Assembly (NCBI GenBank): GCA_002159075.1
Contig: LZRT01000070.1
Coordinates: forward strand, 9,007 to 73,006
Length of the DNA: 64,000 nt
Direction of reading: 5' to 3'
DNA from: Bacillus thermozeamaize
Lineage (GTDB): Bacteria > Bacillota > Bacilli > ZCTH02-B2
In this document: positions 1,079 to 27,088 of the stretch, in pieces
How positions within the stretch are numbered: the first letter of the stretch is position 1
Layout of the letters: each line of letters opens with the position of its first letter
Program-made: the position numbers and the translations under genes
Notes under the pieces: model-generated
The model's input: only the letters and a program-made list of their open reading frames with translations
Told to the model about the DNA's origin: nothing
Database searches by the model: none

Positions 1079-3535
1079 CTAACCCAGCATACGCGGTTCC
1101 ATGTCGATGTGCCAGCTGACCTGTTCCTTCTTCAGCCGGGGCTCCCAATGGGTCAGCGCCGCTCGCAAGACCGTACGGACAATGGTTTCATTTGTATATT
1201 TTATCATGCTCTGAAATCGATATCTATTTTTTAGTCTCGCGATCGGTGAAGCAACCGGCCCCAAGATGTGGGCATGATCCTTTAGCTCCCCGTTGAGCCA
1301 GTGTGTCACCTGCGTCGCCCAGGACAAGGCAACGGCGGCCGTTTCATGCGCGAAGACCAGCTGCGCCAGGCGGCAGTATGGCGGATAGCCGGACTGCTTG
1401 CGCAGCAGCATTTCCCTCTGGTAAAACCGGACATAGTCATGCGTGGCAGCCGCCTGGATGCTTTCGTGTTCCGGGTTGAAACTCTGGATCACCACTTCTC
1501 CCGGCCTCTCGTGACGGCCGGCACGGCCGCTCACCTGTGTCAACAGTTGAAACGTCCGCTCACTGGCGCGAAAGTCGGGCAGAAAAAGCAGTGAATCGGC
1601 AAGGATCACGCCTACCAGTGTGACATTTGGAAAATCCAATCCCTTGGTGATCATCTGCGTCCCCAGCAGGACATCCGCTTCGTGTCTTTGAAAAAGATCA
1701 AGCAGGCGCTGGTGGGCCCCTTTTTGAGCGGTCGTATCCGCATCCATTCGCAACACGCGAACCTGGGGAAAGAGGCGGTTCAGCTCCTCCTCCACCCGCT
1801 GGGTACCAACACCCAAATGGCGGATGTGCTGGCTTCCGCACTCCGGACAGGCAGACGGTTCCAACGCTGTAAACCCGCAATAATGGCAGCGCAGGTGGTT
1901 GCCTACTCGGTGGTACGTCAAGGTGATATCGCAGTGGGGACAGGTGATCGCCGTCCCGCATACGCGACACATCACAAAATGGGCAAAGCCACGACGGTGT
2001 TGGAAGAGAATCACCTGCTCCTTGCGGGCAAACCGTTCCAGCATTTTTTCATAAAGAAGACGGCTGAACAGGCTGCGGTTTCCCTCTTGCAACTCCTTCC
2101 GCAAATCGACGAGGTGGACGCGAGGATAGGGACGGCCGTGAACCCGGTGTCTCATGCTCAGCAGCGTAAAGCCTCCCTGCAGGGCTGCTGTATAGGCTTC
2201 GAGGGAGGGCGTGGCACTGCCAAAGACGACGGCCGCCCGATGGTACCGGGCGCGTCGCAAGGCGACATCCCGCGCATGGTAGCGGGGGGCCTCCTCCTGC
2301 TTGTAGGTTCCTTCATGCTCTTCGTCCACGATGATGAGCCCTATGTTTTCAAAGGGAGAAAAAATGGCCGAACGGGCTCCAACAACGACACCGGCACGGC
2401 CTTCCTGAATTCTTCGCCATTCATCAAAACGTTCCCCTTGTGACAAGCCGCTGTGAAATACCGCCACTTCCTCGCCGAATCGCCGACGAAACCGGTCCAC
2501 CATCTGAGGGGTGAGGGAAATTTCCGGCACAAGGACGATTGCTGCACGTCCCAGATGCCGGCAATGGGCAATCGCCTGCAGATAAACTTCCGTCTTGCCG
2601 CTTCCGGTTACGCCATGCAGCAAAAAGGCCTGGTACTCCCGCTTTGATATTGCCGCCAAAATCGGATTCAACACGGATTGTTGTTCTTCGGTCAACGGTT
2701 TGGGGACGTCCCGTTCTGGCGGCCGACCAGAAAAAGGATGCCGTGGCACCTCTTTTTCCACCCGCGCCAATACTCCCTGACGAATGAGCGATTGAATCGT
2801 CGAGGAGGAAGCCTGAACCCGTTTCAGCAGGTCAGATTGCAGCCATTCCTCGTCCGGATGGCGGCGAAATTGCTCGAGGATCTCCCGTTGCTTGACCGCC
2901 TGGCGGGGAAGCTGTTGCAAGAAAACGTCCAGCTTCCCCGGATCGATGTTCAGGCGGATGAAGGCCGCCTTCTTGCCCCGGACATCCCTTTTCAGGACAG
3001 GGCGGACCACAAGCCGCCCCTCACGTCTCCATTGGTTCAGGATGCGTTTGTACGCCGGAAATGCTTGCAACAGATCTTTCCAGGCAATGGCGGGATGATC
3101 CTTTACATAGGACAAAATCTCCTGTTCCTCGTCCGTCTTCAGCCATCCGTCATCCTTAATCTCCACTTCGGTGGTATACCTGCCACGAACGCCGGCAGGA
3201 ATCATCACCTTAAGAGCGGTCATCCATGAACACAGGGTTTTCTGGCTGAGCCAGTGCGCCAGATTGACCAGCTCTGCGGTCAAAGGCGGTGGCACCACTT
3301 CTTCAATCTCACGGAGCACGATGTCCTCTTGCGCCTGTTCCGTCCCCCGTTTGGCTGCCAGCGGTTCATCCTTCACGTCGATGACAATGCCATCCACTCG
3401 GCGTGAACCGAACGGCACCACCACGCGTGAACCGATTCGGACCTCAGCGGCCCATTCTTCCGGGACCAAATAGGTGTAACTCTGATCACCGGCCTGCCCG
3501 GGAACATCCACCACAACCTGCACCCGCAGTCTCAT
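1079..3535 (-). CDS. priA: Primosomal protein N' (replication restart helicase PriA)
   Basis: 818 aa. Has a Walker A motif (GVTGSGKT), a DEEH box and a Cys-rich zinc-binding region (CxxC x4). The ATG overlaps the coaBC stop (ATGA). Confidence 0.95.
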
Positions 3536-5000: not shown

Positions 5001-5626
5001 CAGCGAAACTCAACCTCCTCCAACTGTTTGGCAAACCGATCCCAGATCCGTTTCGTCCTCAGGTGTTCAGCCGCGATAATCGCCCGGATCTTGTCCGCCG
5101 CTTTCTCAACCACGTCGTTTACCACCGCGTAATCATAATGATGCAACATCTTCAACTCTTCCCTGGCCACGCCCAAGCGGCGGAGAATATCCTCCTCGTC
5201 TTCCGTCCCCCGATGTTCGATCCGTTCCTTCAACGCGTTCAAACTGGGGGGCAGGAGAAAAATAAAAATGCCTTCGGGGAACTTTTCCTTCACCTGAAGC
5301 GCTCCCTGAACTTCGATTTCCAATATGACGTCCTTGCCCTGGGCAAGAGTTTGTTCAACAAATTCCCTTGGCGTGCCGTAATAATGATCGGCGTATCTGG
5401 CCCATTCCAGCAGCTGTCCCTGTTCAATCATCCGCTGAAATTCTTCCTGGGTCCTGAAAAAATAGTTCACCCCGTCCTTTTCCCCGGCGCGAGGCTTGCG
5501 TGTCGTTACCGATACGGAATACACCAGCTCAGGCATCAAGCTGCGCAAGGCGGAACAGACGGTTCCCTTTCCCACACCGGAAGGCCCGGATAATACAATA
5601 AGCAATCCCTGCTGATGGTCTGCCAT
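5000..5626 (-). CDS. gmk: Guanylate kinase
   Basis: P-loop GPSGVGKGT. The start is at [14 protein letters not shown], preceded by GGAGGA and a 6-nt spacer. Confidence 0.93.
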
Positions 5627-5627
5627 C

Positions 5628-5897
5628 TCAATCCTCCGGATCAACCGCAGGATCCTCTTTGGTGTTCAACCGATTCGCAACCGTTTCCGGTTGCACCGCT
5701 GAGAGGATCACGTGGTCACTGTCCATCACAATCACAGCCCTGGTTCGCCTTCCGTAGGTGGCGTCGATCAGACGGCTGTTGGCCCGCGCTTCGGTGATGA
5801 TCCGCTTGATCGGCGCTGATTCGGGGCTGACAATCGAAATGATGCGGTTAGCCGACACAATATTGCCAAATCCGATATTGATCAGTTTGATAGACAT
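5628..5897 (-). CDS. remA: Extracellular matrix/biofilm regulator RemA (DUF370)
   Basis: [34 protein letters not shown]...[26 protein letters not shown] is near-identical to B. subtilis RemA/YlzA. The ORF-track N-terminal extension lacks an RBS. Confidence 0.9.
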
Positions 5898-5961
5898 CAG
5901 ATTGAGCCTGCCCTCCCATCCTAAGTTTGAAAAGCTTGCAGGTACATGACGACCGCAAAAG

Positions 5962-6822
5962 TTACTCCACATTTTGAATTTGTTCCCGCATCTTGTCAAT
6001 CTCGCTTTTCGTCGTGAGAATGTGCTGATTGAGGGTAGGATCGGGCACTTTCGCCGAAATGGTATGGATTTCCCTGCTCATTTCCTGCAACAGGAAATCC
6101 AGCTTTTTCCCGACCGGCCCCGGCTCTTCGACGATCCGGGCAAATTGCTGACAATGGCTGCGCAAACGTGTCAGCTCTTCATCAATATTCGCCTTCTCCG
6201 CAAAGATCAGCAGCTCCGTGTACAATTTTTCTTCCGCTATCTTCTCCACCCCGAGCGCTTCCAGCCGCTGCAGCAGACGACCGCGGTAGATCTCCAGCAT
6301 CTGTTCCGCGTGTCGCTGCATCTCTTCCACCTGTTCAAGGACCAGCCGGTTGCGCCGCCGGAGGTCTTCCTGTATGACTTGACCTTCCCGCCGTCGCATC
6401 TGGTTCAGCTGCTGACATGCCAGGGCAGCGGCCTCCCTGAGCGGCTCACTCCAATCAAATTCATCATCGACTTGTGTGTGGAAGATTTCGGGAATTTCCA
6501 AAATCGTGCGGATGTCAACTTCCCCTGGCAATTGGAAGCGTTCCTTGAGCGTCCGCAACAGCCTTATCCAGTCCTCGACACGTTGCCAATTCAGCGTCTG
6601 CAAGGTTCCGTCCACAGGCTCCAGCTGCACATACAGGTCCACTTTTCCCCGGGACAGATGTGACTGGAGCTCTTTTCTGAGAAGCTCTTCATAGGATAAC
6701 CAGTTTTTTGGCAAGTGAACTGAAATTTCCCGATATCGGTGGTTGACAGACCGAATCTGCAACACAAGCCGTTGTCCATGAGCCGATACTTCAGCCCGCC
6801 CATAACCTGTCATGCTTTTCAT
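5962..6822 (-). CDS. yloC: YicC/YloC family stress-induced protein (endoribonuclease)
   Basis: N-terminus MKSMTGYGR. There is a coiled-coil middle region and a C-terminal DUF1732-like region. The position between remA and yloB matches B. subtilis. Confidence 0.85.
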
Positions 6823-6887
6823 GTTGGTTTCACTTCCATTCATTTATTCTAAACAATTTAGGTGATCTGAACAAGTATCACGACCTT

Positions 6888-9659
6888 TTAGCGCATCGGA
6901 TGGAGCGCCTGCGCCGGTTTGCCTGACAACAGGGCCGGAATGCCGGCGATGAACGTAGGAATGGCTGCGGCGAACAAAATCAAGGCCCATTCGCGCAAAT
7001 GAAGCGCCGTGGTGTGAAAAACCGGTTGCAGAACACCGACGTAGATGACAGCCAGCAGCATCAACACAGACATGATCACCGAAAGGACCAGCCAGCGGTT
7101 TTCAAATGGATTGCGATCAAAGACGGAACGCTCACACCGGCAGTCAAAAACGTGAATCAACTGGGCCATCACCAGCGTCGCAAAAGCCACCGTCTGAGCC
7201 CGTAACAGGTCGTCCGGGTTTTCTGCCAGCGTCAGCCAAAAACTGCCCACCGTGACCAGTCCGATCAAAAGCCCCCGGCTGATGATTTTCCATCCCATCC
7301 CGCGCGCAAAGACGCTTTCACGCGCATCCCGCGGCGGACGGTGCATCACATTCTCTTCGCTGGTGTCCACTCCCAGCGCCATGGCCGGCAACCCGTCCGT
7401 CACCAAGTTGACCCAGAGGATGTGAATGGGAAGCAGCGGCAAAGGCATCGCCAACAGCATCGCAATGAGCATGGTAAAAATTTCTCCCACATTGCTGGCC
7501 ATCATGTAACGGATAAATTTCCGGATGTTCTCATAAATGCCTCGTCCCTCTTCGACGGCAGCCACAATGGTCGCAAAGTTGTCATTGGCAAGGACGAGGG
7601 AGGCTGCTTCCTTGGTCACGTCGGTACCGGTTCTGCCCATCGCAATGCCAATGTCCGCCGCTTTAACAGCCGGTGCGTCATTGACCCCGTCCCCGGTCAT
7701 CGCCACCACTTCACCTTTGGCTTGCAAGGTCTTGACAATCCGCAGCTTGTGTTCCGGCGCAACACGTGCGTAAACGTATATCTGATCGATGTTTTCCGCC
7801 AGTTCCGATTGGCCCATCCGGGACAGCTGACTGCCGGTCAGCACCCGTCCCCCCGGCGGAAGGATCCCCAGTTGCCGGGCAATGGCCTCCGCCGTCGTCT
7901 GATGATCGCCGGTGATCATCACGGTCCGGATACCGGCCCGCCTGCAAAGGGCAATGGCCTGCTTGACCTCTGGGCGAGGCGGGTCGATCATGCCCATCAA
8001 CCCGAGAAAGACCAGACCTTGTTCGGCTTCCGCCTCATTTTGGGGAATTTCTCCCGGACGCAGGCGCCGGTATGCAAATCCCAAGTTTCGCAAAGCCATT
8101 TGCGCCAGCGATTCATTTGCTTGCATGACGTTCTTCCTAAAGGCGGGCGACAGGAGCTGCTCCTTCTCGCCGTATACAATCTGCGTGCAACGTTCCAACA
8201 GGACATCCGGCGCTCCCTTCACCAGCACCCAGCGGTTGCGGGATGTGTCCTCCACGACAACCGACATCATCTTTCTTGACGGATCAAACGGAAATTCCTT
8301 GATCCGCCGCCAGCGACCGCGCAGCTCAGCGGGGTTCAGGCCGGCCTTCAATCCGGCAAAAAGAACCGCTCCTTCAGTCGGATCGCCCTGCAGCAACCAG
8401 TCCCCTTCCGGGCCTGCAGCCGGAATCTTGTCAGGGTGCTTTTTCTTTCCAAAAATTCTTTTCCTGCCGTTTTCGATCAGTTGTGCATTGTTGCAAAGGC
8501 AGCCGATCTCCAAAAGCCACTGCAGTTCCCGGTGCCGTTGCGACGCAAGCGGCAGGCCTGCGGAGACAAAGGGACCTGATGAAGGTTCCTGTTCTCCTTT
8601 TACCTCAATCTTGCGCCCCGCAATCCAGATGTGGGTCACCGTCATCCGGTTTTGCGTCAGGGTTCCCGTTTTGTCGGAACAGACAACGGTCGCCGTCCCC
8701 AGCGTTTCCACCGCCGGCAACTTGCGAATGATGGCCTGCCGCTTGATCATCCGTTGCACGCCCAGTGCCAGGGACACCGTCACAATCGCCGGCAGGCCTT
8801 CCGGAATGGCCGCCACGGCGAGACTGACACCAGCAAGAAACATTTGATACAATTCTTGCCCATGCCAGATTCCAAGACCCACCACCAGACCGGTCAAAAG
8901 CAGGCAGGCGACAACCAACACCTGTCCCAAATGGGCCAGGCGGTGCTGCAACGGAGTAACCTCCTCGTCTTCAATGTGCATCAGATGGGCGATTTTCCCC
9001 ATTTCCGTCTGCATCCCGGTGGCTACCACAATGCCGATCCCTTTTCCCTGTACCACACTGGTACCCATATAGGCCATGTTTTGCCGATCGCCCAGAGACA
9101 AATCTTCATCCGGAAGCGGATCGGCGAATTTGGCGACCGGCAACGATTCCCCGGTCAACGCGGCTTCCTCGATGCGCAGTCCTTCGGCAACCGCCAACCG
9201 CAAATCGGCTGGAATCCGATCGCCGCTTTCCAAATAGACGATGTCGCCCGGCACCACTGTTTTAGCCGGTATCTTTTGCAATTGCCTGTCCCGCAAGACC
9301 CGGCACTCTGGCGCCGTCATCTGCTTGAGCGCCTGCAAGGAATTTTCCGCACGATACTCCTGAACAAAACCCAGGACGGCATTCAGCAGGACAATGGCCA
9401 CAATCGTCAATGCATCCGTATATTCACCAAGCCATCCTGACAACAATGTGGCGACCAGAAGGATGAACACCATAAAATCCTTGAACTGACTGAAAAACAA
9501 GAAAAGAGGATTGATCCGTTCTCCCCCTGCAAGGAGATTTTCGCCATATCGCGCCAATCTTTTCTCCGCTTCTTTCCATGTCAATCCGGCATTCACATCC
9601 GTCTCGTATTGGCGGAGCACATCTTCAACCGATTGTTGGTATGCTTTCTTTTCCTTCAT
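6888..9659 (-). CDS. yloB: Calcium-translocating P-type ATPase (PMCA/SERCA-type)
   Basis: 923 aa with about 10 TM segments. Contains the DKTGTLT phosphorylation motif, the [10 protein letters not shown] hinge and PEGL in TM4. Confidence 0.93.
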
Positions 9660-21560: not shown

Positions 21561-22661
21561 TTACGCATTCCCTCCCCGATGGTTGGCCATCAACTGCACG
21601 AACTGCTCAAAGAGGAATAAGGTATCTGTGGGTCCGGGATGGGCATCGGGATGAAACTGTACTGAAAACGCCGGATAATCCCGATGTCTCAAACCTTCCA
21701 CCGAACCATCATGAAGCAGTCGGTAGGTCACCTCCAGCCTCGTCCCCTCCAGTGAAGATTCCAGCACATCATATCCGTGATGCTGCGCCGTAATCCACCC
21801 TTTTCCCGTCTGTACCTCTTGCACCGGATAGTTGGTTCCACGATGGCCCAACGGCATCTTGGCCACTTTAGCGCCACAGGCCAGCGCGAACAGCTGGTGT
21901 CCCAGCCCGACTGCAAAAAGCGGGTATTTCTTCACCAAAGCGGAAATGGTCGGCAACACCTGCGCCAGCGAATGCGGATCCCCTGGCCCGTTGGACAGAA
22001 ATACGCCATCCGGTGAATAGGCCGAAATCGCCAAAAAGTCCGTGTCGTAAGGAACCTGAATCACGTCACATCCGGAACGTAACAACAGCTCCCGAAAACT
22101 CCGCTTGACGCCAAAATCCATCAGCACAACCGTAGGCCGCCAGCCTGCCCGGGGCTTTTCCGTCTTCCACGTCAGCACCTCGCGGGATGATACCCGGTGC
22201 ACTTGATCCGTTGCCTGCGGTGCGGCAAGCAATGAACGAACGGCTTCCTCCGACAGGCTGTCCTGGCCACTGACCAAGACCCCCTTCATCATTCCGCGGT
22301 CACGAAGGTGTCTGGCCAGCTTGCGGGTATCCATCCCGTATAAACCGACAACGCCATGCGCGCGCAACCAGGCATCCAGGCTGAGCCGCTCTGCATCCTC
22401 CGCAATCCAGTCAGGCTCGCTGACAATGAGCGCACGCAGCGCAGGCGCGCGTCCCTCCATCTTCTGCCGGGAAAGACCGCCATTTCCGACGAGGGGATAG
22501 GTCATCAGCACGATTTGATCGCAGTATGTCGGATCGACGAGAATCTCCTCCAGACCTGACATGCTGGTCTGCAAAACCACTTCACCCACAACCTGTCCCG
22601 TTGCGCCAAACGCTTCTCCCTCAAAACACGTTCCATCTTCCAGGTGAAGTACCGCTTTCAT
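21561..22661 (-). CDS. carA: Carbamoyl-phosphate synthase small subunit (glutamine amidotransferase)
   Basis: The start is at [11 protein letters not shown], preceded by AGGAAGGA with an 8-9 nt spacer. A GATase catalytic-site sequence GVCLGHQ-like ([12 protein letters not shown]) is present. The track ORF is extended 37 codons upstream. Confidence 0.92.
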
Positions 22662-22743
22662 CCGCCACATCCTTCCTAAACGCTTTAGAATAGCATGCGA
22701 TTGCCTTTCAGTTACCATTCCACATCCATTGCGCCATTCCGGG

Positions 22744-23664
22744 CTAAACGCCAGCTGCCTCATGGCAGACATTGGTAGACAAACCGCGCTTGATGACGAA
22801 TTCCAACACCGCCATCCGGACCGCTACACCATTTCGTACCTGTTCAAAAATCCTGGATTGTGGATGATCCACCACTTCACCGTCAATTTCCACCCCGCGG
22901 TTGACCGGCGAGGGATGCATGATGATCGCATGCGGCTTCAGACGGCTTGCCCGTTCCACCGTCAACCCGTAAGCCTCACGGTACGCGCTGTAATCCGGAA
23001 GCTCAGCCTCCGACATCCGTTCTTTCTGTACCCGGAGCATCATCACCACGTCGGCTTGCAACGCCCGCTCCATCGAAACCAGCCGCACACCCGCGGGCAA
23101 CCTCTCGGGCATCCAGGCTGACGGCCCGGCCAGCATGATCTCCATCCCCAGTTGAGGCAACAGGTTGAGATGGGAACCGGCCACGCGACTGTGAAGCACA
23201 TCACCAATCAGGGCAACCTGGATGCCGTTCAGTCTGCCAAACGCCCGCTGGATCGTCAGAAGATCCAACAGACATTGCGTTGGATGCTCGCTGGTACCCT
23301 CTCCTGCATTGATGAGCGGAACCTGAACCACTTCCGACAGGCGACGCATGATCCCATTTTCGGCATGCCGGATGACCATGGCATCGACGCCCATCGCCTC
23401 CAGGGTGCGCACCGTATCCTCCAGGCTCTCCCCTTTTTCCAGGCTGGAGGTCGCAGGTTGAAAGTTCAGCGTCTCCCCACCCAGCCGTTTGACCGCCATC
23501 TCAAAGGAGAAACGGGTCCGTGTGCTCGGCTCAAAAAACAGATTGGCCACCACCGTCTGCGCCAGTGACTGACCGACAGGATGTTCCAGACGATACGCAG
23601 CGCGCTCAAGAATGGCTTCCACCTCATCCTTCGTCAGCTCGGACACCGAAATCAAGCGTTTCAT
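22744..23664 (-). CDS. pyrB: Aspartate carbamoyltransferase catalytic subunit
   Basis: STRTR carbamoyl-phosphate binding motif and HPxQ/HPSP motifs. The RBS is GAGGAGGG. Confidence 0.94.
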   Translation of the reverse strand: MKRLISVSELTKDEVEAILERAAYRLEHPVGQSLAQTVVANLFFEPSTRTRFSFEMAVKRLGGETLNFQPATSSLEKGESLEDTVRTLEAMGVDAMVIRHAENGIMRRLSEVVQVPLINAGEGTSEHPTQCLLDLLTIQRAFGRLNGIQVALIGDVLHSRVAGSHLNLLPQLGMEIMLAGPSAWMPERLPAGVRLVSMERALQADVVMMLRVQKERMSEAELPDYSAYREAYGLTVERASRLKPHAIIMHPSPVNRGVEIDGEVVDHPQSRIFEQVRNGVAVRMAVLEFVIKRGLSTNVCHEAAGV

Positions 23665-23850
23665 AAACGTTCCCTCCTCAAATCATTGACCCGTCTCCTC
23701 TTTTTTCCACAAAAAAGCTCTTTACCAACCGGTAAAGAGCTCGTCAAACGCACGCGCACAGGCACACCAGCACCTGGGCAACAGGGCTTGCACACTCCTT
23801 GCCGGCCTCACGGGACCTGCTTAAAGGAACGGTCTCTCCCCAGGCAATAT
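23665..23850 (-). promoter_or_regulatory. pyrR-pyrB intercistronic attenuator 2 (PyrR box + intrinsic terminator)
   Basis: RNA GGUCCCGUGAGGCCGGCAAGGAG (+ 23795-23817) matches the PyrR box. It is followed by a perfect hairpin AGCUCUUUACC-GGUU-GGUAAAGAGCU plus UUUUUUGUGG (+ 23707-23743), and then the pyrB RBS. Confidence 0.82.
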
Positions 23851-24636
<786 letters not shown>

Positions 24637-24637
24637 C

Positions 24638-24666
24638 ATTATCGCATCCGGAGTGGCTGAAGTCAA
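24638..24666 (-). promoter_or_regulatory. sigmaA-type promoter of the pyr operon (TTGACT-17-GATAAT)
   Basis: In the minus orientation: TTGACTtcagccactccggatgcgATAAT. It lies directly upstream of the PyrR-binding leader. Confidence 0.7.
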
Positions 24667-24716
24667 TGATGAATGGACCGCTTTTTTGCGGCAACCCGAC
24701 ATCCGCCGGGAATTGG

Positions 24717-25157
24717 TTATGGATCATCGTCTCCCCGGTGGGGTTGATAAGCGATCTCTTTTACCGTGGAATCACAATGCGGGCAGTAGTACGTGATCGT
24801 CACCTCGCTGCCGCACTCCTGGTGCACAAGCTTTTGATACTTTGGTTCAAAAAAGTGATTTCCCCAAATGGCCAGGGCGTTGATCACATGCTGAAGGGCA
24901 CGTCCTTGTTCCGTCAACCGATACTCATAACGGGGAGGGTGCTGGGAATACAGAACGGAACGAACAATACCGGCTGATTCCAACGTCTGCAACCTTTCGG
25001 ACAAAATGTTGGGCGCAATCCCTTTGAGCGACTCCCTGATTTCGTTAAACCTTGAAAGGCCCGCCAATAAATCGCGAATGATCAACAACGTCCATCGATC
25101 GCCCACCAAATCCAGCGTACGTGCGATGTTGCAAGCAAGATTGTACGTTTTTTGCAT
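24717..25157 (-). CDS. HxlR-family winged-helix transcriptional regulator with Cys-rich C-terminal extension
   Basis: The N-terminal ~105 aa fit the HxlR/DUF24 wHTH pattern (C..RTLDLVGDRWTLLIIRDL...NILSERLQ). The extra ~40 aa tail is HQEC-x10-CPHC. It is divergent from the MBL hydrolase. Confidence 0.8.
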   Translation of the reverse strand: MQKTYNLACNIARTLDLVGDRWTLLIIRDLLAGLSRFNEIRESLKGIAPNILSERLQTLESAGIVRSVLYSQHPPRYEYRLTEQGRALQHVINALAIWGNHFFEPKYQKLVHQECGSEVTITYYCPHCDSTVKEIAYQPHRGDDDP

Positions 25158-25205
25158 AAAGACCTCCTTTCCATACGCAGTTTGCTTTTAAACAACAATA
25201 TAGCA

Positions 25206-25221
25206 ATCAACATCCGTTGAT
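25206..25221. promoter_or_regulatory. Perfect inverted repeat ATCAAC-N4-GTTGAT in the AT-rich HxlR/MBL divergent intergenic region (candidate HxlR operator)
   Basis: atcaacatccgttgat sits between the divergent starts of the HxlR-like gene (-) and the MBL hydrolase gene (+). Confidence 0.4.
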
Positions 25222-25369
25222 ACAAATGGGTTTGTTGAACGAAAGATAAGTATAAATAAACAACTTACTTGCTATTTTATACTTTATCGTTTATGATGGG
25301 GATTGGGTCTAGAATGTATGAAAGAAAGCAAATATTTCAAACCAAGATGAGCTGGGAGGAGAAAGACGC

Positions 25370-26137
25370 ATGATCATGCAAAAGTTGACATGGGCGGGTG
25401 TGGCGATCTCCTGTGAAGGAACCACGATTTTAATCGATCCGATAGGCAATACAAGCGATCATCCAGAAAAACCGCTTGCAGCCAGGATGGGCAAGCCTCG
25501 TGAAACAATATTTCCTTTGACTCATATTACGAATGTTTCGTCTATTTTTGTCACCCATCTTCACCCCGATCACTTTGACCCGGATGCCATCAGCGCGGTC
25601 TTTGGTTCAGACATCCCGGTCCATGTGCCGGAGGAATCGGTCGAATCAGCCCGAAAAACCGGCCTGCGAAACGTTGTCGGCCTGTCGGCGGGCGAAAAGG
25701 TAAACGTTGGAACCTTGCGCGTAACGGCTGCCCCCTCTGTGGACGGATTTGGCGCTCCTCAGGTTGCCTGGATCGTGTCCGGCGGCGGACGGAATGTGAT
25801 TCACTGCGGCGACACGCTATGGCACGGATACTGGTGGCGGATTGCGCGGCAACACGGCCCCATTGAAGCCGCTTTTTTGCCGGTCAACGGAGCTGTGCTT
25901 CACATTCCCGGTTTGCCTGAACAGAGCAGCTTGCCGGCCTGCATGACCCCGGAAGAGGCGGTGGAGGCAGCTCGTCTTTTAGGTGCCGGCCGGCTCGTCC
26001 CGATCCACTATCACACCTTCCACCACCCTCCGTTTTATATAGAAACGCCAAACCTCATCGAACGGTTAACCAAGAGGGCCCAGGAACGCGCCGTTCATGT
26101 AGCGTTGTTGGAACCTGGAGAGAAGCTGGAAGTATAG
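25370..26137 (+). CDS. MBL-fold metallo-hydrolase
   Basis: HLHPDH metal-binding motif with downstream His/Asp ligands. The RBS is GGGAGGAG. The start could be 2 codons downstream (MQKL). Confidence 0.8.
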   Translation: MIMQKLTWAGVAISCEGTTILIDPIGNTSDHPEKPLAARMGKPRETIFPLTHITNVSSIFVTHLHPDHFDPDAISAVFGSDIPVHVPEESVESARKTGLRNVVGLSAGEKVNVGTLRVTAAPSVDGFGAPQVAWIVSGGGRNVIHCGDTLWHGYWWRIARQHGPIEAAFLPVNGAVLHIPGLPEQSSLPACMTPEEAVEAARLLGAGRLVPIHYHTFHHPPFYIETPNLIERLTKRAQERAVHVALLEPGEKLEV

Positions 26138-26152
26138 GTGATTCAAGGATGT

Positions 26153-27088
26153 TCATTCCCTCTGCCCGGACGACAAAGCATCCAGCAGCGCCTGCATGTC
26201 CGCCGGCAACGGGGCCTCAAAGACCAGCTGCTCTTCCGTGCGGGGATGAATAAAACCCAAAACGGCCGCGTGCAGCGCCTGACCGTTGATGGCCAGGGTG
26301 CGGCGCGGCCCGTACTTGGGATCACCAACCAGCGGGTGGCCGATGTACTTCATGTGCACCCTGATCTGATGGGTCCTCCCCGTCTCCAGCCGCAGGCGAA
26401 GCAATGTATAGGCGCCAAAGCGCCTTTCAACGACAAAATGGGTGATCGCTGGCTTGCCGCCCTTGGCCACCACCGCCATCCTTTGACGGTTGGCTGGATC
26501 CCGCCCGATCGGCGCATCCACTGTCCCACGATCAACCGACATGTTCCCGTGAACCAAGGCCACGTATTCCCGCTGGACGGTGTGTTCGGCCAATTGGCGT
26601 GCCAGCGATTCGTGCGCCTGGTCGTGTTTGGCCACAACCAGCAGGCCGGAAGTGTCCTTGTCGATCCGATGTACGATCCCCGGGCGCAAGACGCCATTGA
26701 TCCCGGACAAGTCACGGCAATGGTGGAGCAACGCATTGACCAGCGTTCCTGAAAAATGGCCCGGCGCCGGGTGCACCACCATACCCCGTGGCTTGTTCAC
26801 AACCAGGAGGTCCCCATCTTCGTAAACGATATCCAGGGGAATCGGTTCCGGGGCGATCTGCAACCGAATGAGCGGCGGGACGACCAGCTCCACCTCGTCT
26901 TCCGCAGTCAGACGGTAACTGGCCTTGACGGATACACCATTGACCGTCACATGTCCGGCCTTGATCCACTGCTGGATTTGTGAGCGGGAGACATCGGACA
27001 ATTGCCGGGACAAAAACTTGTCGACCCGCTCTCCCATATCCTCCGCATCGATCTCCCACAGATACCTCTCCAGTCCCCGACCGCTCAT
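26153..27088 (-). CDS. rluD: 23S rRNA pseudouridine(1911/1915/1917) synthase RluD (YlyB)
   Basis: S4 domain plus an HRIDKDTSG catalytic motif. It sits immediately downstream of lspA, as in B. subtilis ylyB. The ATG overlaps the lspA stop (ATGA). Confidence 0.9.
   Translation of the reverse strand: MSGRGLERYLWEIDAEDMGERVDKFLSRQLSDVSRSQIQQWIKAGHVTVNGVSVKASYRLTAEDEVELVVPPLIRLQIAPEPIPLDIVYEDGDLLVVNKPRGMVVHPAPGHFSGTLVNALLHHCRDLSGINGVLRPGIVHRIDKDTSGLLVVAKHDQAHESLARQLAEHTVQREYVALVHGNMSVDRGTVDAPIGRDPANRQRMAVVAKGGKPAITHFVVERRFGAYTLLRLRLETGRTHQIRVHMKYIGHPLVGDPKYGPRRTLAINGQALHAAVLGFIHPRTEEQLVFEAPLPADMQALLDALSSGQRE

Follow-up and report, generated by a model that had tools for sequence, protein, structure and literature searches.

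Between rluD and pyrR, the window analysed here (64,000 nucleotides of contig LZRT01000070.1 of Bacillus thermozeamaize) carries two back-to-back genes that form a real conserved unit. One encodes a long-form regulator of the HxlR/DUF24 family with a C-terminal tail (146 aa; 24717..25157, minus strand), and the other a hydrolase with the metallo-beta-lactamase (MBL) fold (255 aa; 25370..26137, plus strand). Open reading frames (ORFs), Pfam profiles and AlphaFold2 (AF2) models agree on both genes, in keeping with the divergent HxlR and MBL pair reported in a preliminary description of this DNA. Compared with the ancestral rluD-pyrR junction the pair is an insertion, and its control region contains a conserved dyad, TWAGTW-N9-WACTWA, which is the likely operator of the regulator. 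A self-contained two-gene stress module is, we infer, the best explanation of the locus. The best model for its function, in which a YodB/QsrR-like thiol-switch repressor with a structural-zinc tail would control a di-metal hydrolase, is given here neither more nor less than even credence.

The regulator and hydrolase genes as a unit

Direct neighbourhood look-ups placed the regulator and hydrolase genes side by side in 10 independent loci, with varied surroundings and orientations, which bears out the co-occurrence that the preliminary description had suggested looking for. These are the window, L091/L093 and L173 (L numbers denote the loci compared), Effusibacillus lacus, E. dendaii, Neobacillus sp. 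D3-1R, Bacillus sp. FJAT-29814, GCA_017639815, Aneurinibacillus tyrosinisolvens and Fredinandcohnia humi. The pair lies at the same rluD/pyrR site as in the window in L091/L093 and L173. In E. dendaii (L089, 5115-6432, AP023366) it is flanked by an rbgA(ylqF)-like GTPase gene and rnhB, a junction that is normally uninterrupted in B. subtilis; since the pair splits the rbgA-like gene from rnhB in this species, the cassette has entered conserved housekeeping junctions at least twice. The two genes are convergent in A. tyrosinisolvens, while in F. humi the order is MBL, DUF1272 and HxlR on one strand. When the homologue lists of the two proteins were compared, about 18 pairs of hits agreed in the length of their longest contig.

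The HxlR-MBL pairing is limited to the closest clade. Among the matches listed in the genome-collection scan, none of the regulators at 54% identity or less had an MBL gene within 6 kb, and the MBL relatives at 53% identity or less were mostly without an HxlR neighbour in the metagenome scan. Such distant MBL homologues without an HxlR neighbour, together with the distant tailed HxlR genes without an MBL neighbour, are what can be said for two unrelated genes that came to lie side by side by chance. This explanation is nevertheless extremely improbable, as the pair stays adjacent in 10 loci with unrelated surroundings, a co-occurrence that contradicts it, and as the shared operator described below moves with the MBL gene when the orientation changes.

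The neighbours of the pair fit an electrophile-stress theme loosely: DJ-1/PfpI and aldo-keto reductase genes in A. tyrosinisolvens, a flavodoxin-like FMN reductase gene in E. lacus, a glyoxalase-fold gene in Neobacillus and a DinB gene in GCA_017639815. Bacillus sp. FJAT-29814 and F. humi carry a Cys-rich DUF1272 (PF06906) gene of 63 aa 3' of the MBL gene (L175, 3808-3999; L176, 4664-4855), which is absent from the window. Only the L091 lineage has an ORF of 930 aa (5591-8383), with no Pfam match, that separates the regulator gene from pyrR. MBL relatives that lack an HxlR partner (L097, L098, L104 and L127) are often located beside genes assigned by Pfam to the ABATE/zf-CGNR "stress-induced regulator" type, and in L177 a gene of this type (2619-3176) is found 1 kb from the pair. 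The remaining neighbours of the unpaired MBL relatives, read by eye, belong to LysR-, AraC-, TetR- and SDR-type clusters, and no clue to a substrate emerged from these neighbourhoods in the metagenome scan.

A conserved dyad as the likely operator

A motif search of the MBL-upstream regions returned a single 26-nt site in 10/10 loci, with the consensus TACTAAGTATAAAAAAACAACTAACT, which can be read as a dyad TnAGT-N11-ACTnA with an A-rich centre. The window has two copies in the divergent spacer. The best site by position weight matrix (PWM), with 28.6 bits, is a full dyad at 25244..25269 on the plus strand (core TAAGTA-N9-AACTTA, 25247-25267), regarded as the distal putative operator, while a degenerate proximal copy on the minus strand (25263..25288; 17.4 bits) lies over the -35 and spacer of the predicted MBL promoter. 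Together the two copies make up an inverted repeat with 16-nt arms (25248-25263 / 25269-25284), which was found independently in a repeat search. L091/L092, L175 and L176 likewise have copies in tandem, at a distance of 18-19 bp, an arrangement which points to the binding of two dimers.

In the 64-kb window TWAGTW-N9-WACTWA has a single match (25247-25267), with an expectation of 0.11 even when one mismatch is allowed, and across 181 loci the pattern is confined to pair spacers and to the region immediately upstream of tailed HxlR genes. PWM scores of 15 bits or more were obtained upstream of 11/80 distant tailed HxlR genes, in comparison with 1/306 control windows. A related motif, TAGTAACTTGCAAATTACTACTAACT, is shared by the actinobacterial tailed-HxlR loci, and related sites also precede distant tailed HxlR genes without an MBL partner. 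In the non-divergent pairs (F. humi L176 and A. tyrosinisolvens L087), it is the MBL gene, and not the regulator gene, that has the motif in its upstream region. From the distribution of the strict pattern and of the PWM hits it follows that the motif accompanies the regulator subfamily and therefore behaves as an operator should, and on these sequence grounds the dyad is likely the operator of the regulator.

The preliminary description had instead singled out a perfect palindrome of the spacer, ATCAAC-N4-GTTGAT. This element is indeed present, at 25206..25221, but it stands at chance level and is not conserved. One perfect inverted repeat with 6-nt arms and a loop of 0-10 nt was observed in the spacer against 0.81 expected per 212 nt, at least one appears in 47% of shuffles, and the palindrome is absent from L091 and L173, the nearest syntenic relatives, and from all other pair loci. 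On both grounds it was ruled out as the operator. That it should still serve as a binding site of the regulator, for example in autoregulation of the hxlR-like gene, is very unlikely. It lies within the spacer of a weak candidate promoter in the hxlR direction (TTGTAT-17-TATATT) and its half-sites resemble the HypR box GTATCAA-AA-TTGATAC (PMC3351151), but the half-sites are spaced by 6 nt as opposed to 2 nt in the HypR box, and it is a different motif that is conserved family-wide. Among the pair loci, no consistent regulator-gene promoter positioned relative to the operator was found.

On the hydrolase side, a consensus scan predicts a sigma-A-type promoter (TTGCTA, 17 nt, TATGAT; 25269..25297, plus strand). 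In 8/10 loci the distance from the start of the dyad to the predicted -35 is 6-8 nt, and that from the end of the dyad to the end of the -10 is 9-11 nt; a dyad half-site takes in the TTG of the -35, and the dyad reaches to 3-4 nt before the -10. The operator motif and its spacing to the predicted promoter are therefore both conserved, and an operator that overlaps the core promoter of its target, as in the YodB/QsrR type, is seen in these eight loci as far as predicted promoters go. The window presents a variant of this layout, where the full dyad abuts the predicted -35 and the weaker copy occupies the standard promoter-overlapping position. A dyad placed over the predicted -35 and spacer has the layout expected of a repressor site, from which the bound protein would occlude the core promoter.

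The regulator and its cysteine tail

The regulator matches the Pfam family HxlR (PF01638) over residues 17-105 with 93.4 bits, against a cut-off of 20.8 (E 8e-27), and within this envelope (24843..25109, minus strand) the AF2 model has the helices and wing of a winged helix-turn-helix domain. The mean confidence of the model (predicted local distance difference test, pLDDT) is 91, rising to 92-96 in the tail, which forms a short hairpin round the CPHC knuckle. Foldseek gave a probability of 1.0 to HypR, YodB, YtcD, HxlR and QsrR, with the short proteins HypR, YodB, HxlR and QsrR matching the winged-helix core only; the profiles of RrpA (NF047367) and RrpB (NF047364) were below their cut-offs, with 84.7 vs 175 and 48.9 vs 185, respectively. 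The best full-length matches in sequence and structure, tail included, are PA1607 (2f2e) and PA1374 (4gcv) of Pseudomonas aeruginosa, with TM-scores of 0.72-0.80 over 138-142 columns and about 36% identity. These proteins keep the N-terminal Cys, yet they have Glu and Ser where the window regulator has H112 and C115, so that of the Cys3His site the first knuckle, at least, is missing; the fold of the tail is thus known, but the Cys3His site is without a solved example.

Cys9 (codon at 25131..25133, minus strand) occupies the N-terminal reactive-cysteine position of the family and aligns with the conserved Cys just ahead of the first helix in PA1374 and PA1607. What this cysteine does in HypR, YodB and CatR has been described (PMC3351151). 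Conservation was followed in 83 homologues, which are 139-197 aa long and come from several phyla; 82 of them carry Cys9, so that this residue is as conserved as had been proposed.

The tail motif reads H112-Q-E-C115-x9-C125-P-H-C128 (24774..24824, minus strand) and is a putative Cys3His zinc knuckle pair; the preliminary description had recognised the motif correctly and given its gap as x10 instead of x9. C125 and C128 are present in 83/83 homologues and C115 in 82/83, while position 112 is His in 62/83 and Asp in 13/83 (H or D in 75/83) and N, A, V, L or G in the other 8/83. Position 117 is His in 60/83 and Ser in the window regulator. The family-wide pattern H/D-x2-C-x9-C-x2-C is thus conserved across phyla, and a tail that is common in HxlR proteins while its cysteines vary, an outcome that had been envisaged as speaking against the first interpretation, is not what the homologues present: the tail is common and its cysteines are conserved. 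By its sequence the tail has a zinc-ribbon-like signature, with two ligand pairs of x2 spacing. Knuckle pairs of the type H-x2-C...C-x2-C are typical structural zinc sites, and the tail most likely holds a structural zinc. The tailed HxlR branch comprises at least 1,487 database clusters, and in the library searched no paper was found that deals with the Cys3His tail of HxlR proteins or with HxlR genes paired with MBL genes.

Elsewhere in the branch, tailed HxlR genes are found opposite SCO4226-like "nickel responsive" genes in Oceanobacillus, Paenibacillus sabuli, Ureibacillus and Jeotgalibacillus (L005, L007, L008 and L011; ~5300-5870). Others (L024-L081) are divergent from HtrA-like trypsin-PDZ protease genes, in 17 actinobacterial loci, and from MFS pumps, in 8 Streptomyces loci. 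Operator-like dyads are present in the spacers between distant tailed HxlR genes and their partner genes.

The hydrolase

The hydrolase is matched by Lactamase_B_2 (PF12706; 72.9 vs a cut-off of 27, E 3e-20) and Lactamase_B_3 (PF13483; 43 vs 24), and the MBL fold was confirmed by Foldseek with an AF2 model of pLDDT 93. The metal-binding motif HLHPDH, of the HxHxDH type, occupies residues 63-68 (25556..25573, plus strand), as previously noticed, and the predicted metal ligands H63, H65, D67, H68, H145, D148 and H213 do not vary among 24 homologues, and neither do the subfamily motifs DGxGxPQVAW and GDTLWHGYWW. Judged by these residues, the protein is an intact di-metal MBL hydrolase.

The closest sequences in the PDB are TM_1162 (UPF0173) and NAPE-PLD, and the closest folds are UlaG, Vibrio 3bv6, TM_1162, NAPE-PLD, the isothiocyanate hydrolase SaxA and Igni18, all with 25% identity or less. 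With the branch of UlaG, UPF0173 (TM_1162, Igni18), NAPE-PLD and SaxA, the hydrolase shares the fold (TM-score 0.70-0.80) and the complete ligand set of HxHxDH, His, Asp and His; it differs by an identity of 17-25% and by having its own DGxGxPQVAW and GDTLWHGYWW motifs. A lactonase or glyoxalase-II-like activity had been proposed as a search target. The curated cut-offs do not bear it out: the scores were 21.2 vs 200.8 for the glyoxalase II GloB (TIGR03413), 19.3 vs 306 for the L-ascorbate-6-phosphate lactonase UlaG (NF008688), which is a fold neighbour only with about 20% identity, and 45 vs 144 for the UPF0173 metal-dependent hydrolases (NF001911). There is therefore no specific support for a glyoxalase-II or lactonase identity.

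Proposed mechanism and alternatives

According to the thiol-switch repressor model, the regulator would act as a long-form HxlR/DUF24 winged-helix dimer on the dyad TWAGTW-N9-WACTWA, often present in two copies 18-19 bp apart. When bound, it would repress the hydrolase gene, since the dyad overlaps the -35 hexamer and the spacer of the divergent MBL promoter. A thiol-reactive signal, either an electrophile or an oxidant, would modify Cys9 by analogy with YodB, CatR and QsrR, possibly through a disulfide between Cys9 and a tail cysteine of the partner subunit, and this modification would release the regulator from DNA and allow expression of the hydrolase. The H-x2-C...C-x2-C tail would hold a structural zinc, and this ion would stabilise a small beta-hairpin domain that packs against the winged-helix core, while the hydrolase, with its intact two-metal centre, would cleave an ester, lactone, thioester or related bond.

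The repressors YodB and CatR of Bacillus subtilis and QsrR of Staphylococcus aureus are the nearest precedents, as they share with the window regulator the Pfam family, the fold and the N-terminal Cys, together with a dyad operator, predicted in the present case, that overlaps the promoter of a detoxification-type enzyme gene. They are, however, proteins of about 110-115 aa that lack the C-terminal Cys3His tail, they control azoreductases, nitroreductases and dioxygenases instead of an MBL hydrolase, and their operator sequence is also different. HxlR and HypR of B. subtilis belong to the same family, have the N-terminal Cys at the same position and bind beside a divergent or adjacent enzyme operon (PMC3351151). 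Both lack the tail, and the HypR box is unlike the dyad described here; moreover, they activate from upstream of the -35, whereas the present site lies mostly over the -35 and spacer.

Several observations weigh against this model. The Lys that HxlR reportedly uses, two residues after the reactive cysteine, is missing after Cys9. Solved relatives form the same tail fold without Cys, which means that zinc is not needed for the fold in those proteins. The SCO4226-like nickel-responsive partners and the Cys-rich DUF1272 gene near tailed HxlR genes hint that the tail could be a metal sensor instead of a structural site. Every named MBL family tested fails its cut-off, so no substrate can be assigned to the hydrolase. 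All promoters are consensus predictions, and in A. tyrosinisolvens the site is 192 nt from the MBL start codon and closer to the DJ-1/PfpI gene. Finally, the strongest dyad of the window, at about -60 to -35, directly precedes the -35 hexamer, a position compatible with activation, and HxlR and HypR are activators that act from upstream sites (PMC3351151).

This position and the precedent of HxlR and HypR, together with predicted -35 hexamers that are weak (TTGTTT, TTGCAA and TTGCTA), form the case for a HxlR/HypR-like activator, whose modified form would bind upstream of the -35 and recruit RNA polymerase to the MBL promoter. This alternative is unlikely. The main dyads of 8/10 loci span the -35 and spacer to 3-4 nt before the -10, where a bound protein would block the polymerase, and the window too has a proximal copy in such a blocking position, even though its full dyad (25244-25269) abuts the -35 on the upstream side.

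A second alternative makes the tail, and not Cys9, the element that controls DNA binding, either by binding a regulatory metal, which could be Zn, Ni, Cd or Cu, at the Cys3His/Asp site or by working as a zinc-thiolate redox switch from which oxidation frees the zinc, so that the module would couple metal or oxidative status to a metal-dependent hydrolase. This is a less favoured option that still deserves serious attention. The tail ligands are conserved to the same degree as Cys9; relatives without the cysteines have the same fold, which argues that the cysteines here add more than folding; and the regulated enzyme is itself metal-dependent, with an SCO4226-like "nickel responsive" partner in four genera of Bacilli and the DUF1272 gene 3' of the MBL gene in two loci pointing the same way. 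On the other hand, knuckle pairs of this kind typically bind structural zinc, position 112 is N, A, V, L or G in eight homologues, Cys9 is kept as in thiol-sensing relatives, and the HtrA-like protease and MFS pump partners are not metal-specific. In its broadest form, this line of thought would make the Cys3His/Asp tail the mark of an unrecognised sensory branch of HxlR proteins, working through a zinc-thiolate switch, perhaps with Cys9 of the partner subunit, and using a related operator across Bacillota, Actinomycetota, Methylomirabilota and other phyla to govern partners as varied as MBL hydrolases, SCO4226-like proteins, HtrA-like proteases and MFS pumps; such a proposal is tentative, and its being correct would come as something of a surprise.

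History of the insertion

The rluD-pyrR junction is intact in two relatives, as expected for an insertion in the window of the kind first supposed. "Bacillaceae bacterium G1" (G1 hereafter) has the order ylmH-divIVA-ileS-lspA-rluD-pyrR-pyrB-carA-carB, with rluD directly followed by pyrR, and in Calditerricola satsumensis rluD is also directly beside pyrR. The pyr promoter and PyrR leader are kept at the border in 5/5 sequences (window, G1, Calditerricola, L091 and L173), which puts the site of insertion between the end of rluD and the pyr promoter.

Identities of the flanking proteins give the order of descent. RluD of the window is 74-76% identical to those of L091, L173 and G1, which are 82-88% identical among themselves, and PyrB and LspA (window, L091 and G1) repeat this pattern, so that the window is the outgroup to L091, L173 and G1. 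Across the lineages with the pair at this site, the regulators are 72-77% identical, approximately the divergence of the flanking genes, and the hydrolases 62-64%, somewhat more diverged than the flanks. Since L091 and L173 share the site with a flank-like divergence and the window is the outgroup, the arrangement appears ancestral to the clade, with probable loss in G1; a single insertion in the common ancestor and later loss in G1 is the most economical reading of these identities. To judge from them, the insertion is old and not recent. The idea of an acquired module consequently holds as to a unit and an insertion, but not as to recent arrival, given that L091 and L173 have the same site. 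Likewise, the possibility that the arrangement is ancestral, also raised beforehand, applies to the clade of the window, L091, L173 and G1, although in G1 and Calditerricola rluD and pyrR are in direct contact.

No integrase or transposase gene is present in the window in or beside the pair, and no convincing terminal repeats, border repeats or target-site duplication were found at the pair. Classification as a mobile element or genomic island was rejected for lack of a mobility gene and of convincing repeats. An 11-nt near-repeat with 91% match is located near the insertion borders, at 24702-24712 (TCCGCCGGGAA) and 26199-26209 (TCCGCCGGCAA); its second copy is inside rluD and the near-repeat is probably due to chance.

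Flanking genes and composition

ORFs and profile matches place rluD, the gene of an RluD-type pseudouridine synthase, at 26153-27088 on one side of the pair and pyrR at 23851-24477 on the other, followed by pyrB, carA and carB. The RluD protein is identical to one that NCBI annotates as "MAG: Bacillus thermozeamaize", a name borne by a genome of a thermophilic compost consortium (PMC5395642), and all contigs identical to the window come from metagenomes. The divergent intergenic control region is 212 nt long (25158..25369) with a GC content of 0.344, in comparison with 0.547 for the whole window, which is in line with the AT-rich spacer of about 210 nt noted earlier. It is the AT-richest 212-nt stretch of the 64 kb, and 0.09% of 212-nt windows are equally AT-rich. 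The composition of the two genes deviates from the flanks only mildly, with a GC content at third codon positions of 0.58-0.59, where the flanking genes have 0.63-0.73.

The MBL gene and rluD are convergent (26135-26155); their stop codons are separated by 15 nt, in which the window scan gave no terminator-like site, and in L091 (3721-3724) and L173 (1227-1230) the two genes overlap by 4 nt. Induction of the MBL gene could possibly lead to convergent read-through or antisense transcription into rluD.

On the pyr side, the promoter of the operon (TTGACT, 17 nt, GATAAT, with TG; 24638..24666, minus strand), found by consensus scan, marks the border of the insertion. Promoter and PyrR leader lie just downstream of the regulator gene, with no terminator in the window between the regulator gene and the pyr promoter. 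The PyrR-binding leader with its attenuator (24535..24624, minus strand), which is context outside the module, was recognised through Rfam RF00515 with 36.1 bits and E 0.0045, a sub-threshold match given the gathering score of 54, and contains a terminator-like hairpin at 24561-24545. At the gathering threshold Rfam gave no matches over 18-32 kb, and by E-value it gave only this PyrR element and a spurious plastid match covering the operator.

The pyr operon (21561-24477) consists of pyrR-pyrB-carA-carB, without pyrP or pyrC in between. This layout is common to the window, G1 and L091, while Calditerricola has pyrP and pyrC, genes which are also contained in the pyr operon of B. subtilis. As mechanically called, the carA ORF (21561-22772, 403 aa) runs into the end of pyrB; because gene calls on identical contigs give a protein of 366 aa, the true start is probably about 37 codons downstream.

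Implications for the HxlR/DUF24 family

The locus illustrates that small regulator-enzyme cassettes can settle in conserved housekeeping junctions without mobility genes, as at rluD/pyrR and at rbgA/rnhB in E. dendaii. The MBL subfamily encoded by the cassette is widespread, and a defined inducer would help to find its substrate. The HxlR/DUF24 regulators provide model thiol switches that respond to quinones, aldehydes and hypochlorite, and to this family the tailed branch adds three conserved cysteines and a His/Asp, in a site that is contained in no solved structure. If the tail is in truth a zinc-thiolate or metal sensor, it would constitute a new input mode for the HxlR/DUF24 family, and the geometry of operator and promoter makes the question directly testable.

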